A DNA stretch of 64,000 bases from Eubacteriales bacterium (GTDB lineage: Bacteria; Bacillota; Clostridia; Oscillospirales; QAKW01). Of this stretch, positions 3,012 through 58,475 are shown in pieces. Each line of letters begins with the position of its first letter. Position 1 is the first letter of the stretch. Under the pieces are notes generated by a model. That model had not been told where the DNA came from, did no database searches, and saw only the letters and a program-made list of their open reading frames with translations. The position numbers were made by a program, and so were the translations under genes. The DNA lies in contig JAZQDW010000067.1 in NCBI GenBank assembly GCA_045546995.1, positions 1,864 through 65,863 of the forward strand, in the 5' to 3' direction.

Positions 3012-3947
3012 TTATAATACGTTGATCAGTATGATGCCGCCAAATGCTACGATCATACCCAATATACTTCTCTTTGTGATCTTTTCACCAAAAAACACCA
3101 TACCGGTCGCGCTGTTGATGATCAGGGCGCCGCCCTTCACGATCGGATAGAGTATCTGAGAGGGCATCCCCATCACACCCGTCGCCAAGGTTTGCAAAAA
3201 GTTGGTAGCAAACAAAAAGCTGGCCATAATACCGATGTGGATCCAGGTCGGACGCAAAGAAGCGCCAATGTTTTTACAGTACTCACGTCTATACGGCGCC
3301 GGTCGTTTCAACAAAAGCACCACCAGTATCATCAATACCGCAAGGAAACAACAAACGAAGGAATAAAAATGAAATACCGACATCGGATATACCGTTTCCC
3401 CTGCGAAGGCGCCACCCTCTTGGTAAAACTTGGTATAAAGTTGCTGTGAAAAGGAGATCATTCCGTCACCAAGCAACGCCATAATCAACCAAAGGATGCC
3501 GCCAAAGGTCTTTTTGGGTCCGGTTTTATTAAACTTTGAAAGAATGGCGGATGCGATTACGATCAGCGCAAAGCCTGCCATCTTGGGAAGTTTGATCGGC
3601 TCGGCAAAAAAGAATGCGCACAACACCGCCGGAATGATCGATCCCAATGTGAGCGTCACGTCCACCGTGACCAAAGCGTTATGTTGCACGGCAAGCATCC
3701 AGCCAATCAAAAATGCCAAATTTGCCAGACCCGATAGCAGACAAACGGCAAGCATACCGCCGCTCACGGGTATAGCGCCACCGTCAAACAGCATCAGCAC
3801 AAAGCCAATGGCCATACATATAGCCATACGGATGGTGCTGAATAGATATGCATCCTCCGTATGCGTTGCCTGAATGCTGACTTTTTTTCCACTGTATCCC
3901 TTTGCGGCGTTGAAAAACAGAGCCAGCAGAACCACCAGGTATACCAC
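3012..3947 (-). CDS. DMT/EamA-like polytopic membrane transporter
   Basis: About 10 hydrophobic segments. The track ORF (to 4346) has an implausible non-membrane N-extension. GTG 3947 is preceded by GGAGGA at 7 nt. Stop lies 1 nt from the GRE ORF, consistent with an operon. Confidence 0.65.
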   Translation of the reverse strand: MVYLVVLLALFFNAAKGYSGKKVSIQATHTEDAYLFSTIRMAICMAIGFVLMLFDGGAIPVSGGMLAVCLLSGLANLAFLIGWMLAVQHNALVTVDVTLTLGSIIPAVLCAFFFAEPIKLPKMAGFALIVIASAILSKFNKTGPKKTFGGILWLIMALLGDGMISFSQQLYTKFYQEGGAFAGETVYPMSVFHFYSFVCCFLAVLMILVVLLLKRPAPYRREYCKNIGASLRPTWIHIGIMASFLFATNFLQTLATGVMGMPSQILYPIVKGGALIINSATGMVFFGEKITKRSILGMIVAFGGIILINVL

Positions 3948-4076
3948 GACAATTTCCTCCAAAATGTGATATTCTGTCCTAATTGTAAATAAAACGCGGA
4001 AGCAGTTCCATATATTTTTGTATAAAATATGGATTTTTCTATACAAATATAGTATAATGAAAGAGAGGTGAGCAGG

Positions 4077-4898
4077 ATGCGTTACGTAGATATCAAAAAA
4101 CTCTGTCAAGAAGATCTGAACGTGCAAGGAGTGGAGATATTTCCCGAAATGTGGGCCCGACACAGGCAGTTTAACCAATATCAGACACGCCCCCGTCCCA
4201 CGTCGGCCCTGTTTTTGATCTGTACGGAGATTACGGTAACCTTTTTTCCCCGGGGCGAAGCGCCGATTACGGGAAAAATAGGAGACGTGATCTATATTCC
4301 CAAGGGCATCTGTTATCACGTCCACACATCCGATACACAAGATCAAGTGGCTACCTATACCGTCAATTTCGTTTTAAGCGCTGAAAAAGAGATCCTGCTT
4401 CAATCCAAAATCACCAAGCTCGCCACCTGTACCGACGGGCGTTTGGCGGCAAGCGCAGAACGATTACATCGGGCGATCTACGGACAGCCGGGACCCCAAA
4501 ACCTTGTAAAAATAAAATCTGCATTTTTCTCGCTGCTGGAGCTAATCTGCGAAGTGGCAAACGCCGATCGAGACAGCTATTATCCCATCCGTGCGGGCGT
4601 CAAAGCCCTGCAGACGGAATGGAACCAAAACCGAAAAGTGGAAGAATATGCTATTCTGTGCGGTATCTCTCCTGCTTATTTTTATCGTTGTTTTAAAAAT
4701 TGGTGCGGTCAAAGTCCGGTGGAATACCGAAACAGCCTGCGAATGCGCTATGCCGCCGACCTGTTGTCACACACCGATATGCAGATCGGTGAAATCGCCG
4801 CAATGGTGGGATTTGAAGACCCGTTTTATTTCAGTCGGATTTTCACGGCACAATTCGGTCGTTCTCCCAGACAGTACCGCCGCAATCGGGAACGGTAG
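4077..4898 (+). CDS. AraC family transcriptional regulator (cupin-like N-domain plus C-terminal HTH)
   Basis: C-terminal AraC HTH signature (...YFYRCFKNWCGQSPVEYRNSLRMRYAADLL...GFEDPFYFSRIFTAQFGRSPRQYR). Divergent from the transporter-GRE operon. Confidence 0.85.
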   Translation: MRYVDIKKLCQEDLNVQGVEIFPEMWARHRQFNQYQTRPRPTSALFLICTEITVTFFPRGEAPITGKIGDVIYIPKGICYHVHTSDTQDQVATYTVNFVLSAEKEILLQSKITKLATCTDGRLAASAERLHRAIYGQPGPQNLVKIKSAFFSLLELICEVANADRDSYYPIRAGVKALQTEWNQNRKVEEYAILCGISPAYFYRCFKNWCGQSPVEYRNSLRMRYAADLLSHTDMQIGEIAAMVGFEDPFYFSRIFTAQFGRSPRQYRRNRER

Positions 4899-4902
4899 CT
4901 CG

Positions 4903-5670
4903 CTATATCTTCTTTTGCTGCTTCAGCCAAATATAAGTCACCAAGGGCTCGGGCAGCAATTTCACACCCAATACCTGCAGACGAATACGAACATCGTGAA
5001 TAGACAGTTTTTTACGCTTACGCAGATCCTTGAGGGCAGTCTTAACAATCTGATCCGGAGTAAAAACAATATTATAGTAGGTTACCGCATCCACCTCTTT
5101 GGTTTTTGCGCGGTCAAAAAAGGGTGTTTGTACCCAGCCGGGACAAATGGCCATAACATGAATCCCACGGGGCTTCAGCTCGGCATACAAGCCTCTGCTG
5201 TAGCTGAGTACAAAGGCCTTCGTCGCGGCGTAGGTGTTCAGATACGGCACGCTTTGAAAAGCGGAGAGCGAATCGAGATTTAAAATGGTACTCCCCTTTC
5301 TCATATGCGGTAAACAAAGGCGGGTCATTCGCACCAGAGCGCGAACGTTTAGATCAATCATTCCCAGATCGTCCTCCAGCGGCACACTTTCTACGCCACC
5401 GAATTTTCCGTAGCCACTGCAATTAAGCAGCAATGAAACGTCGGGCCGGACGTCCTTTAAAAGTGTTTCCAAACGCGCAAAACCGGCCTCCTCCGTAAGA
5501 TCCATCGGCAACGGACGTACCTTTGCGCGGGTCAATGCATCCAGTGTCTCCAATTTGTCCGCACTGCGGGCGATGGCCCATATTTCGTCATATTCGTATT
5601 CCCGATCCAGCGCCAGTAAAAATTCACGTCCCATTCCGGTGCTGGCACCGGTGATCACAGCGATTTTCAT
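4903..5670 (-). CDS. SDR family short-chain dehydrogenase/reductase
   Basis: N-terminal TGASTGMG Rossmann motif and a YxxxK-type region (YAATKAFV). Confidence 0.85.
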   Translation of the reverse strand: MKIAVITGASTGMGREFLLALDREYEYDEIWAIARSADKLETLDALTRAKVRPLPMDLTEEAGFARLETLLKDVRPDVSLLLNCSGYGKFGGVESVPLEDDLGMIDLNVRALVRMTRLCLPHMRKGSTILNLDSLSAFQSVPYLNTYAATKAFVLSYSRGLYAELKPRGIHVMAICPGWVQTPFFDRAKTKEVDAVTYYNIVFTPDQIVKTALKDLRKRKKLSIHDVRIRLQVLGVKLLPEPLVTYIWLKQQKKI

Positions 5671-46041: not shown

Positions 46042-46518
46042 CTATCTTTGATTGAATGTAGATAACTCCTCACACTTGGGATATCTTTTCAGATAGCCAT
46101 CTATGATAGCCTTATCCCTACTAATAATGAGAGTCCACGAACTGTCACAAGGGACAATTTCTACAGAGGAAAGCGGATGTTGGAGAGATACTGGATTTTG
46201 ATAATACCCATTATAATCTTCGGCAGACGGCAATGGATATTTTAAGACTTCTTCAACTGTGATATTTTTAGGAAAACCGCAAAAACATCCCCAAATCCAT
46301 TGAAAATCCTCTTGTTCAATTATAGCAGATAATTCATCACCCGAAAACCAACAATACTCTTGATCAAGCAGTTTTTTGATATCCTTATTCCGTGGATAAC
46401 ATACACCATCCGTAATAAGCCAATTATATTGCAGTTGTGCATTGTTAATTGCCTGAAAAACCTTGCTCATATAAGTGTAGTATTTATGATTTCTCCTATC
46501 AACAATGCCATATGTCAT
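46042..46518 (-). CDS. hypothetical protein (158 aa), AT-rich islet
   Basis: ATG overlaps the stop of the upstream four-helix-bundle gene (ATGA). No motif assigned with confidence (possibly DUF2691-like, from memory). Confidence 0.55.
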   Translation of the reverse strand: MTYGIVDRRNHKYYTYMSKVFQAINNAQLQYNWLITDGVCYPRNKDIKKLLDQEYCWFSGDELSAIIEQEDFQWIWGCFCGFPKNITVEEVLKYPLPSAEDYNGYYQNPVSLQHPLSSVEIVPCDSSWTLIISRDKAIIDGYLKRYPKCEELSTFNQR

Positions 46519-46868
46519 CTTACATTCTCCTTTGCAGTTCGGCAGGATGCGATCAGCATTGCTCTTAACGAAGTACACTTTGCAGAAAGTGTTTTATAAG
46601 TTTGTTCGTCAATGTATTTTGTTCTGTACAAAAGTTCAAGCCAGTAACCTGTTTCGCTTGCTTCTTTTAAGGCGATTTCAAGCTTGGAAATAAAATCCTT
46701 CTTGCCTTGTGCATACTGTGTTTCGTGGATGTTGGCACCAATGCTTGTACCACTTCTGCCGATTTGATTGGAAACGATAGATTCCTTGACAGATTTTAAT
46801 TTTTTTACCAATTCAATTATATCAACTGAGAATTCCATAGAAAGTTCCCTAAGTTTTGATTCTGACAT
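46515..46868 (-). CDS. four-helix-bundle protein (23S rRNA intervening-sequence protein / Avd-like family)
   Basis: MSESKLRELSMEFSVDIIELVKKL...IGRSGTSIGANIHETQ...ALKEASETGYWLELL is typical of this family. Confidence 0.7.
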   Translation of the reverse strand: MSESKLRELSMEFSVDIIELVKKLKSVKESIVSNQIGRSGTSIGANIHETQYAQGKKDFISKLEIALKEASETGYWLELLYRTKYIDEQTYKTLSAKCTSLRAMLIASCRTAKENVR

Positions 46869-46923
46869 AATATACACCTCGCTTTTCAATATTATATCGC
46901 ATAATTGGATTGTTTGTAAATAA

Positions 46924-47052
46924 GTGATAAGTGATGCAGCTACGCTGTGATAGGTGATGCGATGCGTTCCATTCACGCGCCGCAGGCGTGCATCACGGGC
47001 GACGCCTGCATCACGCACGCAGTGCGCATCACGTTCCGAAGGAACGCATCAC
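46924..47052. repeat. mirror array of heptamer GTGATGC / GCATCAC interleaved with unique short GC hairpins
   Basis: Left half: GTGAT at 46924, 46931, 46947, 46954. Right half: GCATCAC at 46990, 47008, 47026, 47046 (18-20 bp period). Spacers are CGCCgcaGGCG, GGCGaCGCC, GCACgcaGTGC, GTTCCgaaGGAAC. Confidence 0.7.
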
Positions 47053-47053
47053 G

Positions 47054-47096
47054 CAAAGAAACCTGATTTGTCTGGTAGACAAATCAGGTTTCTTTG
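47054..47096. other. 20-bp perfect-stem hairpin abutting the tRNA-Val(GAC) 3' end
   Basis: CAAAGAAACCTGATTTGTCT ggt AGACAAATCAGGTTTCTTTG. Confidence 0.7.
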
Positions 47097-47097
47097 T

Positions 47098-47173
47098 TGG
47101 TGGGAGTAACAGGACTCGAACCTGTGACCCCTTGCACGTCAAGCAAGTGCTCTACCAGCTGAGCTATACTTCC
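47098..47173 (-). tRNA. tRNA-Val (anticodon GAC), with encoded CCA
   Basis: Cloverleaf read by eye. Anticodon loop TTGACGT. GTTCGAGTC T-loop. One A3:C70 mismatch in the acceptor stem. Confidence 0.8.
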
Positions 47174-57380: not shown

Positions 57381-57419
57381 CAGAGAGACACTTCGTAAAG
57401 AAGTCGTCTCTCTGTTTTT
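57381..57419 (+). terminator. intrinsic terminator
   Basis: CAGAGAGAC...GTCTCTCTG stem followed by T5. Confidence 0.75.
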
Positions 57420-57533
57420 ATATAAAAATGACACTTTACGCAAAAGCGAAAGTGTCATAGTGGGTTACGTATTTTAAAGCATATATAAAAGTTACTTGCC
57501 GAAAACAAGAAATTTATTTTTCGGCAGGTTTAA

Positions 57534-57706
57534 GTGATATTGCAAACTACCGTTTGCAGTGATATTTTGCCTTGCGGCAAAGTGAGATAAAAGCCTGCGG
57601 CTTTTGTGATATTATATTCGCTCCACAACTCGGCGAAGCCGAATATCACACGGCATAACCGTATATCACTGCGAAGCAATATCACTCGCCTTTAGGCGAA
57701 TATAAC
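57534..57706. repeat. mirror array of heptamer GTGATAT / ATATCAC interleaved with unique short hairpins
   Basis: GTGATAT at 57534, 57559 and 57606; GTGAGAT at 57582. ATATCAC at 57643, 57663 and 57679; ATATAAC at 57700. Each unit carries a different 9-19 nt palindrome. Confidence 0.7.
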
Positions 57707-57752
57707 TGCGGCACCTTCCTTACGGAGGGTGCCGCCAGTGTGTCCTTTTTAT

Positions 57753-58475
57753 TTATTGCATCATAGTGTCCAACAGGGACGAAGCGAAAAGATAATTCAT
57801 CTCCCGCTTGGGATGATTGATGTAATTGGCCAGCAGATCGGTGGTGTCCACCCCCAGGGCGGCCAACCGTTTCCATTTGGCATAGACGTCGCAAACAGGC
57901 ACGTCATACTCTGCCGCCACGGCCTTCGCCGCATCAATATAGCGATCCAGCACCCCTGCATTTTGCCGCTCGGCCACCTTACCTGCAAACTCACGCAGGT
58001 TTTCCCACGGGATATGACAGCTGACCTCGGTGTTTTGCATATTGGGGGTCATAAAGATCACCTCACCGCCGTCGGCCTTGAGCTTTTCAAAAATGCCGGC
58101 AAGGGCGGTGGTGTAACGATCTAATTTATCAAGGCCCTGGGCGTTGTCATTCAGACCGAAGCAAACCACCGTAAGGTCCGGATGATGAGACAGCACGTCC
58201 CGTTCCAGCCGTTCCAACGCTCTGGGGGCATTATCGCCACTGATGCCCGCATTGATGATATTCACCGGGCTTTCGGGGAACAGCAGCGTCAACATATCAT
58301 AAAGATACTTATGATATGCACTGGATTTATCAAATACGGTCTCAAGATTTCCATCGTTTTTGTAGTAGACCTCAAAGCAACCCTGAGTCACACTGTCCCC
58401 CAAAAAGGCAATGGTGGGCGTAGGTCTACCCTGGCGATCGCGCCCCTTGGCAGCCAGTTTTTCCATTATTTTCAT
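57753..58475 (-). CDS. SGNH/GDSL hydrolase family protein
   Basis: FLGDSVTQG block I and a GLNDN block. ATG 58475 after AAGGAG. The track N-extension overlaps the upstream gene. Confidence 0.8.
   Translation of the reverse strand: MKIMEKLAAKGRDRQGRPTPTIAFLGDSVTQGCFEVYYKNDGNLETVFDKSSAYHKYLYDMLTLLFPESPVNIINAGISGDNAPRALERLERDVLSHHPDLTVVCFGLNDNAQGLDKLDRYTTALAGIFEKLKADGGEVIFMTPNMQNTEVSCHIPWENLREFAGKVAERQNAGVLDRYIDAAKAVAAEYDVPVCDVYAKWKRLAALGVDTTDLLANYINHPKREMNYLFASSLLDTMMQ

Follow-up and report, generated by a model that had tools for sequence, protein, structure and literature searches.

The Gut-1 family has a two-armed full form

We analysed a 64,000-nucleotide (nt) stretch of contig JAZQDW010000067.1 from an Eubacteriales bacterium (hereafter the window), in which an array of short hairpins and heptamers occupies the gap between a plus-strand chromate transporter gene and a minus-strand GDSL/SGNH hydrolase gene, the neighbours already named in the initial annotation. 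This array is a copy of the known orphan family Gut-1 (Rfam RF01706), whose Rfam model spans one half of a larger, two-armed element of ~210 nt that is conserved in intergenic regions of gut Clostridia. Comparison with related loci established its anatomy, its conservation, the selection acting on its hairpins, its fixed junction with an upstream hairpin (T0) and its bias towards gene 3' ends and convergent gaps.

When the complete window was scanned with Rfam, Gut-1 was the sole non-tRNA match; it lies at 57638-57708 on the minus strand and, with 59.1 bits (E = 3.6e-9 over the full window), exceeds the gathering score of 50. Under relaxed thresholds the plus-strand arm (57532-57617) matched the same model at 40.7 bits, below threshold, and a sister array at 46.9 kb of the window scored 24.7 bits; the right arm (57534..57605), read on the plus strand, is a second Gut-1-type array. 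The hallmark of the family, three tandem hairpins with a GUGAWAU linker and covarying stems, was found both against the model alignment and among 34 relatives. The initial annotation had regarded an Rfam hit as a result that would explain the array away. The match does identify the element, but the family has no assigned function, and the array has thereby received a name and not an explanation.

Weinberg et al. (2010, PMC2864571) described Gut-1 from the human gut as three tandem hairpins, each preceded by GUGAWAU, their sole comment being that its detection was confined to human gut metagenomes, without any sequenced organism among the carriers. In the literature searched we found nothing on Gut-1 or RF01706 later than this paper. 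Rfam types the family as 'Gene; sRNA' (small RNA), a label that we consider doubtful, and its model of 77 nt comprises one arm only, in contrast to the two arms found here. In the authors' Stockholm file, which includes flanking sequence, the seeds BAAZ01000095 and BAAZ01025322 already hold the mirrored arm and the centre GCGAAUAUAAUAUCAC; what the initial annotation had termed a mirror array is thus the normal full form of the family. Absent from the published description are the terminator junction, the mirrored arm, a long-range helix (P0), a bias in the hairpin loops and the occurrence in at least 120 contig stretches of metagenome-assembled genomes (MAGs). The array by itself is therefore no discovery; the lasting value lies in the fuller picture of the family and in the doubt about its 'sRNA' label.

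The repeat architecture is not a chance arrangement. All eight heptamers and all hairpins that had been annotated were recovered when the sequence was read with exact coordinates (Table 1), the stems between the heptamers all differing in sequence. The minimum free energy of 57420-57750 was -131 kcal/mol on the plus and -126 kcal/mol on the minus strand, against about -78 kcal/mol for shuffles (z = -10.2 and -11.4). We counted 24 copies of GTGATAT in the window, compared with 7.7 ± 2.8 in shuffles, and six of them lie within ~150 nt here. Clusters of at least four GTGAT/ATCAC per 150 nt were found within the window only in this array and in that at 46.9 kb; both consist of four forward followed by four reverse units (++++----), in line with the proposal that they share one architecture. 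A resemblance of GUGAU to an extension of the Shine-Dalgarno sequence was considered and rejected, the 18 solitary GTGATAT copies lying within coding sequence and not at ribosome-binding sites.

Covariation supports hairpins and a long-range helix but not a heptamer ladder

Read on the minus strand of the window, the element starts with T0, which is followed by a left arm of four hairpins (h1-h4), each after a heptamer GTKNTAT (H1-H4; GTTWTAT in the first copy), by the centre GCGAATAWA, and by a right arm of four ATATCAC heptamers (R1-R4) with three hairpins between them (h5-h7). We tested possible structures on a non-redundant alignment of 34 relatives. For h3-h7, every base pair showed changes on both sides with 86-98% of the cells paired, and for the whole structure 92-96% of the cells were paired at a covariation of 0.34-0.53, compared with 0.09-0.13 for shuffles and ~0.05 for slid partners. 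Judged by these compensatory changes, the data show that the hairpins are selected as structure and not as sequence. Among ~125 elements we counted 143 distinct hairpin sequences in the left arm and 202 in the right arm, with only the heptamer common to them.

The initial annotation had further proposed that forward and reverse heptamers pair, folding the region into a ladder of helices. This fold was not borne out by the comparative data: the column pairs 8-202, 33-175 and 53-149 were unpaired in 31, 21 and 11 of the 34 sequences, H1:R4 and H2:R3 were mismatched in 70/73 and 52/73 elements, respectively, and the left heptamers vary at positions 3 and 4 without compensation. The sole point in favour of the ladder is the agreement in heptamer type between the two arms of each element (GTGATAT/ATATCAC, GTGATGC/GCATCAC or GTGATGT/ACATCAC), which an inverted duplication explains equally well.

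In place of the ladder, RNAalifold picked P0, an 11-pair long-range helix formed by GTTWTATTCGC (H1 and the 5' arm of h1) with GCGAATAW'AAT at the centre. P0 was paired in 99.7% of the cells of the alignment, with a single variable pair (A-U in 20, U-A in 13 and G.U in 1 of the relatives), and its W/W' positions covaried in 99/99 elements. The helix is kept with unrelated sequence in other subfamilies, namely as GATGTGTTCC/GGAACACATC in locus L127, as GATGTTTGCCC/GGGCAAACATC in locus L184 and as GATGCGTTCC/GGAACGCATC in the 46.9 kb array of the window (plus coordinates 47041-47050 and 46961-46970). Since H1 and the 5' arm of h1 pair with the centre across these subfamilies, the centre corresponds to a second copy of the h1 3' arm followed by the complement of H1. 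The central hairpin ATATTCG...CGAATAT of the initial annotation has to be revised accordingly: it overlaps the shorter local hairpin h4 and is, on the comparative data, an arm of the long-range helix. P0 and h1 are mutually exclusive, and both have covariation support, for h1 from one pair with two changes. Complementarity between the loops of left and right hairpins was no better than in shuffles. We also considered an inverton, as the left arm is framed by the P0 arms as inverted repeats of 10-11 bp, but rejected it because inspection found the left arm never inverted in 125 anchored elements; no recombinase family was present among the 25 most frequent Pfam families of the neighbouring open reading frames (ORFs).

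Table 1. Positions of the element, its parts and adjacent hairpins in the window.
Feature	Sequence	Position	Strand	Remark
T0, strong hairpin	GCGGCACCCTCC-GTAA-GGAAGGTGCCGC	57708..57735	-	12-pair stem including one C.A mismatch
H1, first heptamer	GTTATAT	57700..57706	-	T-rich variant; U-tract of T0 and part of P0 5' arm
P0 5' arm	TTATATTCGC	57696..57705	-	TTATAT of H1 and first four bases of h1; complementary to centre 57612-57621
h1	TCGCC-TAAA-GGCGA	57686-57699	-	
H2	GTGATAT	57679-57685	-	
h2	TGC-TTC-GCA	57670-57678	-	
H3	GTGATAT	57663-57669	-	
h3	ACGG-TTATG-CCGT	57650-57662	-	
H4	GTGATAT	57643-57649	-	
h4	TCGGC-TTC-GCCGA	57630-57642	-	
Linker after h4	GTTGTGGA	57622..57629	-	degenerate fifth heptamer; starts GTT in 67/73 relatives
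Centre	GCGAATATAATATCAC	57606..57621	-	P0 3' arm GCGAATATAA (57612-57621) and R1, one-base overlap
R1	ATATCAC	57606-57612	-	
h5	AAAAGCC-GCA-GGCTTTT	57589-57605	-	
R2	ATCTCAC	57582-57588	-	
h6	TTTGCC-GCAA-GGCAAA	57566-57581	-	
R3	ATATCAC	57559-57565	-	
h7	TGCAAAC-GGTA-GTTTGCA	57541-57558	-	
R4	ATATCAC	57534-57540	-	
Forward heptamers	GTGATAT; GTGAGAT	57534, 57559, 57606; 57582	+	sequence read, exact coordinates
Reverse heptamers	ATATCAC; ATATAAC	57643, 57663, 57679; 57700	+ coordinates	sequence read
Interheptamer hairpins, plus-strand arm	TGCAAAC/GTTTGCA; TTTGCC/GGCAAA; AAAAGCC/GGCTTTT	57541-57558; 57566-57581; 57589-57605		
Interheptamer hairpins, other arm	TCGGC/GCCGA; ACGG/CCGT; TGC/GCA; TCGCC/GGCGA	57630-57642; 57650-57662; 57670-57678; 57686-57699		
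Flanking long hairpins		57428-57458; 57495-57528; 57708-57735		
Hairpin abutting the right arm	CTTGCCGAAAA...TTTTCGGCAGG	57495..57528	+	followed by TTTAAGTGATAT on the plus strand
Distal hairpin	ATGACACTTT...AAAGTGTCAT	57428..57458	-	followed by TTTTT on the minus strand; conserved GTAACCCACT before it (57428-57475)
Chromate transporter terminator, canonical	GAGAGAC...GTCTCTC, then TGTTTTT	57383..57412	+	context, outside the element

Relatives of the element are old and vertically inherited

With a single genome included for each species, a scan for the centre and the heptamer following it (a 16-mer anchor with W at position 8) identified at least 120 related loci. Among the matches listed, all were in gut MAGs of Clostridia, assigned to Acutalibacteraceae, Oscillospiraceae, Ruminococcus, Faecousia and "Eubacteriales", with humans, cattle, sheep, goats, deer and others as hosts. 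The anatomy was derived from 125 anchored copies, 73 of which parsed as four plus four units, the remainder being mostly cut by contig or locus ends or having imperfect stems; true variants carry one to five units in the left arm.

Within the 73 complete relatives, the left heptamers are variable. H1 is GTTATAT in 41/73 and GTTTTAT in 29/73, H2 is GTTATAT, GTGATAT or GTTCTAT in 30, 24 and 10 copies, respectively, and H4 is GTGATAT in ~64%. The frequency of T at heptamer position 3 was 97% for H1, 58% for H2, 30% for H3 and 11% for H4, then 92% in the linker after h4. Typically, h1 has the form TCGCC-loop-GGCGA, and h2 is usually TGC-TTC-GCA. The right-arm heptamers are near-invariant (R1 73/73, R2 72/73, R3 63/73, R4 52/73), and as the following base is T in 92% and the preceding base A in 92% of the cases, they form a constant block AATATCACT / AGTGATATT.

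The same hairpins and flanks were found at orthologous loci in several MAGs. The best between-genome identity had a median of 0.90, and paralogues within a genome were 0.68-0.94 identical. Because these paralogues are no more alike than orthologues between species, the copies are old and vertically inherited, and recent mobility of the kind expected from a miniature inverted-repeat transposable element (MITE) was rejected. The density of roughly one element per 65 kb (two in the window and two extra in 132 kb of its flanks) would mean tens of copies per genome.

These data bear on the possibility of a selfish or formerly mobile repeat of the repetitive extragenic palindrome/bacterial interspersed mosaic element (REP/BIME), BOX or MITE type, spread by a hairpin-acting transposase and now decaying or co-opted. 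The extragenic position at gene 3' ends, the element ends that resemble inverted repeats (AGTTATATTC and GAATATCACT), the presence of several copies per genome and the change in unit number through deletion or duplication between units would be consistent with such an origin, as would a near-identical pair of copies with different left flanks in locus L140. Template switching in quasi-palindromes, moreover, can yield compensatory changes without selection. On the other hand, identity within genomes does not exceed that between genomes, the stems are unique instead of being one repeated sequence, the positions are conserved across many species, and no transposase was found among the 25 most frequent Pfam families of 144 neighbouring ORFs. 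In addition, the fixed terminator junction argues for a function or for highly specific targeting. A selfish repeat is thus among the least probable of the readings considered here, ahead of only one other. The copies of the L140 pair (2275-2450 and ~4990-5160) are near-identical from h2 to h7 and differ in their terminators and left flanks, the second terminator lying 23 nt off and not the usual 1-2 nt, a rare sign of recent duplication or gene conversion.

The family extends beyond the GTGATAT type. The sister element of the window (46924-47097, minus orientation) has the heptamer GTGATGC/GCATCAC; the minus-strand order there is a tRNA gene (47101-47173), a terminator hairpin (47053-47097), four units, the centre and a degenerate right arm with nearly contiguous heptamers, followed by a promoter-like site (46920..46891) and a 23S_rRNA_IVP gene (46515-46868). 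A GTGATGT/ACATCAC subfamily was found in loci L127 (6400-6590), L184 (3815-3985) and L186 (3476-3525). One genome may carry several heptamers, GTGATAT and GTGATGC in the window, and GTGATAT and GTGATGT in the L127 and L186 genomes. The heptamer type hence characterises the element and not the genome, as elements of the GTGATAT type were also found in genomes with the GTGATGT type. In five loci (L138, L167, L169, L177 and L216) h6 is replaced by a longer nested TCTTTTGGAAATATCTCGCC...GGCGAGGTATTTCCAAAGGA, in which a larger stem encloses a heptamer-like ATATCTC and an h1-like TCGCC/GGCGA hairpin, resembling the insertion of one unit into another.

BLAST searches with the element matched one unannotated faecal phage record and yielded no plasmid match. 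Scans of viral contigs for the heptamer pattern returned nearly exclusively unrelated tandem repeats of giant viruses, with true arrays only in L013 and L051. The latter, a phage contig (IMGVR_UViG_3300028832_000052), contains at 3800-4400 two one-armed, GC-rich GTGATAT-hairpin arrays without mirror arm or P0, both in gene sense and located on either side of a small gene whose product looks, by eye, like the Prp ribosomal-processing protease.

The element is welded to a terminator-like hairpin and prefers gene 3' ends

In 67/70 elements we detected a T0 hairpin of -12 kcal/mol or better (median -20 kcal/mol, median stem of 12 pairs), which ended 1-2 nt before H1 in 65 of these 67. On the far side of the element a strong hairpin was present in 12/70, compared with 18% in control windows. 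On the minus-strand sense, GNRA-type tetraloops predominate in T0, and because many T0 hairpins have by eye a common apex YC-NTAA-GGA, at least one T0 class belongs to the repeated family.

The nearest upstream ORF was co-directional in 49 cases, opposite in 19 and absent in 21, with a median gap of 56 nt between a co-directional ORF and H1, so T0 is most simply read as the primary terminator of the upstream gene. In the window, ~17 nt separate T0 from the stop codon (57753-57755) of the upstream GDSL hydrolase gene, and 1 nt separates it from H1. Since H1 is T-rich (GTTATAT or GTTTTAT), T0 together with H1 conforms to the hairpin-plus-U-tract rule and looks like an intrinsic terminator, as predicted from sequence. 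An Rfam scan of 18 loci placed a co-directional tRNA gene directly upstream of several elements. Tetrahydrofolate (THF) and lysine riboswitches that occur in the same loci as elements (L166 2932-3029 and 6832-7000; L153 7917-8000) are unrelated.

Two further hairpins flank the array. That at 57495..57528 is kept in orthologous loci, is locus-specific and is the mirror counterpart of T0 for transcription coming from the chromate transporter side. The other, at 57428..57458, forms a terminator-like site ~75 nt beyond the element on the same strand without a gene in front of it, and is conserved in seven orthologous loci (L164, L166, L168, L176, L179, L197 and L240). Whether it is part of the element is uncertain; it may mark the end of a transcript crossing the element or belong to a separate small RNA.

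Gaps between convergent ORFs contained 34% of the elements against a baseline of 16% for the same loci (odds ratio 2.7, p = 0.0025), a p-value that is indicative only, as the counts include orthologous loci and crude ORF calls. At least one arm faces a gene 3' end in 50/56 cases, and divergent gaps are depleted. The flanking genes are diverse housekeeping genes without a recurrent neighbour (108 Pfam families among 144 flanking ORFs). The commonest families, 23S_rRNA_IVP and HTH_3, account for four ORFs each of the 144 (flanks in L121-L240). A small 23S_rRNA_IVP (four-helix-bundle) gene also follows the 46.9 kb array of the window, and the 23S_rRNA_IVP neighbours probably represent one orthologous tRNA-element-IVP locus. 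Neither a transposase nor a recurrent binding protein was present among the 25 most frequent Pfam families of the flanking ORFs, to which this search was confined.

A good sigma-70 promoter was found 0-7 nt after the last heptamer (R4) in 18/95 elements and within 70 nt in 22/95, compared with 8 on the reverse complement and 4 in shuffles. We rejected a general promoter-proximal role, since the adjacent promoters occur in ~20% of the copies and fall into some three orthologous groups. The promoters are also relevant to a reading as duplex DNA, in which a sequence-specific protein would bind the heptamers in both directions and organise or regulate the neighbouring promoter or the local chromosome. 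The near-invariant heptamer with its flanks in the right arm, which fits WATCACW, the adjacent promoters and the forward-then-reverse layout, typical of protein-binding sites, would agree with this. However, the heptamers are irregularly spaced (16-25 bp) without helical phasing, the spacers are kept as hairpins by compensatory change, for which duplex binding has no need, one genome can hold different heptamers, the promoters come from few orthologous groups, and no plasmid match was obtained. The irregular spacing, the compensatory changes in the spacers and the fact that most copies lack an adjacent promoter support the initial annotation in arguing against a simple operator. We regard the duplex reading as the least probable of the five weighed here.

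The strand evidence for RNA and for single-stranded DNA conflicts

The two strands differ in their folding properties. In the GTGATAT sense, the TAT before and the GTG after each stem add U.G, A-U and U.G pairs to it, an extension that is also kept by the variants GTGATGC and GTGATGT. With RNA parameters, the GTGATAT-sense strand was steadier in 72/73 elements for each arm, by 5-6 kcal/mol, whereas with DNA parameters neither strand was clearly favoured, the minus sense being steadier by only ~0.2 kcal/mol per arm. On the ATATCAC strand, C.A mismatches block this pairing of the heptamer, leaving it single-stranded. The same strand carries, in both arms, triloops that are mostly GNA and tetraloops that are mostly GNRA/GNNA, with a C-G closing pair in ~90%. 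Counted on the minus strand, the triloops are TTC (150), TAC (49) and TGC (20) in the left arm and GAA (43), GCA (22) and GTA (20) in the right arm. This mirrored loop orientation might be the frozen result of an ancestral inverted duplication.

One candidate reading is a stable non-coding RNA, generated by read-through or by processing of a 3' untranslated region. Its hairpins would space a repeated single-stranded motif that titrates a multimeric protein, similar to a CsrB/CrcZ-like sponge, or P0 would close a multi-branched domain recognised by a protein. In line with an RNA are the Gut-1 match above the Rfam threshold, the covariation of hairpins and P0, a G.U pair in P0 on the minus strand in 34/34 sequences and the conserved terminator-like hairpin with its T-run ~75 nt downstream. 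A constant heptamer between hairpins of varying length, moreover, suits a single-stranded motif, as the folded spacing is independent of stem length. Counts of G.U versus A.C among distinct hairpins favoured the minus-strand sense in the right arm (22 versus 8), gave no clear preference in the left arm (5 versus 8) or in T0 (13 versus 17), and were not relied on. Against an RNA, no promoter was found in the window, the element beginning 1-2 nt past a terminator hairpin; in the left arm the heptamer of the sense strand is largely absorbed into the stems and little displayed, and a mirrored second arm is unusual for an sRNA. On balance we consider the non-coding RNA unlikely, although only the terminator reading discussed below ranks above it.

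The loop bias points in another direction. C(GNA)G and C(GNNA)G loops are the signature of DNA mini-hairpins, structures that hold together far better in DNA than in RNA and to which single-stranded DNA-binding protein (SSB) binds poorly (PMC13037366), with a dependence on the closing pair (PMC3201870). The forms GCGNAGC and GCGNNAGC have an extraordinary stability in DNA and a much lower one in RNA. Such mini-hairpins are known from the primase sites of the phages G4, St-1 and alpha3, from RSF1010 ssiA and from the promoters of the N4 virion RNA polymerase (PMC13037366). The element could accordingly act as single-stranded DNA, exposed by replication, transcription or repair, with SSB-resistant mini-hairpins leaving ATATCAC unpaired to be read by a DNA enzyme such as a primase, a restart primosome, an HUH-type or a hairpin-binding protein. 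The loops and C-G closing pairs on the ATATCAC strand of both arms, the C.A mismatches that keep the heptamer unpaired there and the ~110 nt of single strand required by P0 would fit. However, the orientation of the elements follows the upstream gene and not replication (GC skew of the minus-strand sense positive in 63/108 loci only), DNA parameters do not clearly favour either strand, and no associated enzyme gene was found nearby among the 144 flanking ORFs. The fixed T0 junction would stay unexplained, and the loop mirroring could reflect a frozen inverted duplication, as a switch of the GNA strand needs two simultaneous changes. The strand evidence for RNA and for single-stranded DNA is thus in conflict. 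We rate the DNA reading as somewhat more doubtful than the non-coding RNA.

A two-sided terminator is tentatively favoured

We rank first, with low confidence, a reading of the element as a two-sided terminator or insulator module acting at the level of transcription. Polymerase coming from either side would meet a run of stable hairpins, each with an A/U-rich tail (GUUWUAUU, GUGAUAUU), and read-through past the primary terminator would be stopped, both from the upstream gene and from convergent or antisense transcription. Such a module would cover the welded terminator, the preference for 3' ends and convergent gaps, the selection on hairpins instead of sequence and the two-sided design, and we infer termination or insulation as the selected function on these grounds. 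In support, the units in GTGATAT sense resemble weak terminators, H1 and H2 are enriched in T, and of the array units in the window a simple terminator scan flagged three, each of them in GTGATAT orientation; the inner units conform to an intrinsic terminator only in part.

Several observations weigh against this reading. With an efficient T0 the remainder would hardly be transcribed, and the strong conservation of a mere backup would be odd. The right arm has the most conserved heptamers and yet often faces no gene end (22 '++' contexts), and the T-richness at heptamer position 3 forms no clean gradient, falling from 97 through 58 and 30 to 11% and then returning to 92%. The strand bearing the C(GNA)G and C(GNRA)G loops is that of ATATCAC, which an incoming polymerase would not make as RNA, and the one-armed arrays of the phage contig sit in sense orientation in an apparent operon, where strong terminators would be harmful. 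P0 covaries perfectly, differs in sequence among subfamilies and has no role in a terminator; like the near-invariance of the right-arm heptamer and the C(GNA)G loop bias, it is left unexplained. Together, these three features suggest an additional partner that reads the single-stranded heptamer.

The probabilities that we assign to the five readings sum to less than one, leaving room for another explanation. A further conceivable reading, as improbable in our estimate as the single-stranded DNA reading, is that Gut-1 is a chromosomal structured-DNA or dual-strand element and not an sRNA. Arrays of mini-hairpins on the strands diverging from the centre would hold ATATCAC single-stranded for a multimeric protein, with P0 as a switch against h1, and their placement at the ends of transcription units could serve a factor-dependent two-way terminator or a landing pad for replication or repair.

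Gut-1 has been an orphan with a one-sentence description since 2010 and is now placed in at least 120 contig stretches of Oscillospirales-group MAGs of human and ruminant origin. The present analysis adds that the Rfam model is half of a larger, terminator-welded element, that a long-range helix supported by covariation takes the place of the ladder, and that the bias towards gene 3' ends and convergent gaps makes a function at transcription ends testable. If the elements are factor-dependent two-way terminators or structured-DNA sites, they would represent a new form of punctuation in the genomes of gut bacteria that are abundant and for the most part uncultured; otherwise, the array is a well-characterised instance of a known orphan motif.

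Comparison with known systems

The omega repressor of the inc18 plasmid pSM19035 binds WATCACW heptads in direct and inverted orientation, and the heptamer ATATCAC(T) of the element fits this consensus. The omega heptads are contiguous, plasmid-borne and located upstream of specific promoters, whereas the heptamers of the element are separated by hairpins of 9-18 nt, chromosomal and without a plasmid match. A promoter is adjacent in only 18/95 elements, and the element does not match an omega-type operator array.

REP/BIME of enterobacteria and BOX elements of pneumococcus are extragenic palindromic units in opposite orientations at gene 3' ends and in convergent gaps, with proposed roles in termination, protection of mRNA 3' ends and gyrase binding. 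The context bias of the element is similar (34% convergent versus 16%; 50/56 facing a 3' end). REP units, however, are a single conserved sequence present in hundreds of copies that RAYT transposases mobilise, whereas the element consists of old copies with unique stems in which only a linker of 7-9 nt is conserved; the single conserved palindromic unit that defines REP/BIME is lacking.

RSF1010 carries two single-strand initiation signals on opposite strands. With its ssiA/ssiB sites, and with those of G4/St-1/alpha3 and N4, the element shares the C(GNA)G/C(GNNA)G loops and closely packed hairpins. Those sites are single and lie in origins of small replicons, in contrast to the many chromosomal, terminator-adjacent intergenic regions occupied by the element, for which GC skew indicated no link to replication.

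The element also resembles intrinsic terminators, including bidirectional ones: T0 with GTTWTATT is, like these, a GC-rich hairpin with a U-rich tract ~15-20 nt past a stop codon or after a tRNA gene. Ordinary terminators, however, have neither the additional hairpins, of which there are up to eight, nor the conserved linker, the mirrored arm and the long-range helix with its covariation.

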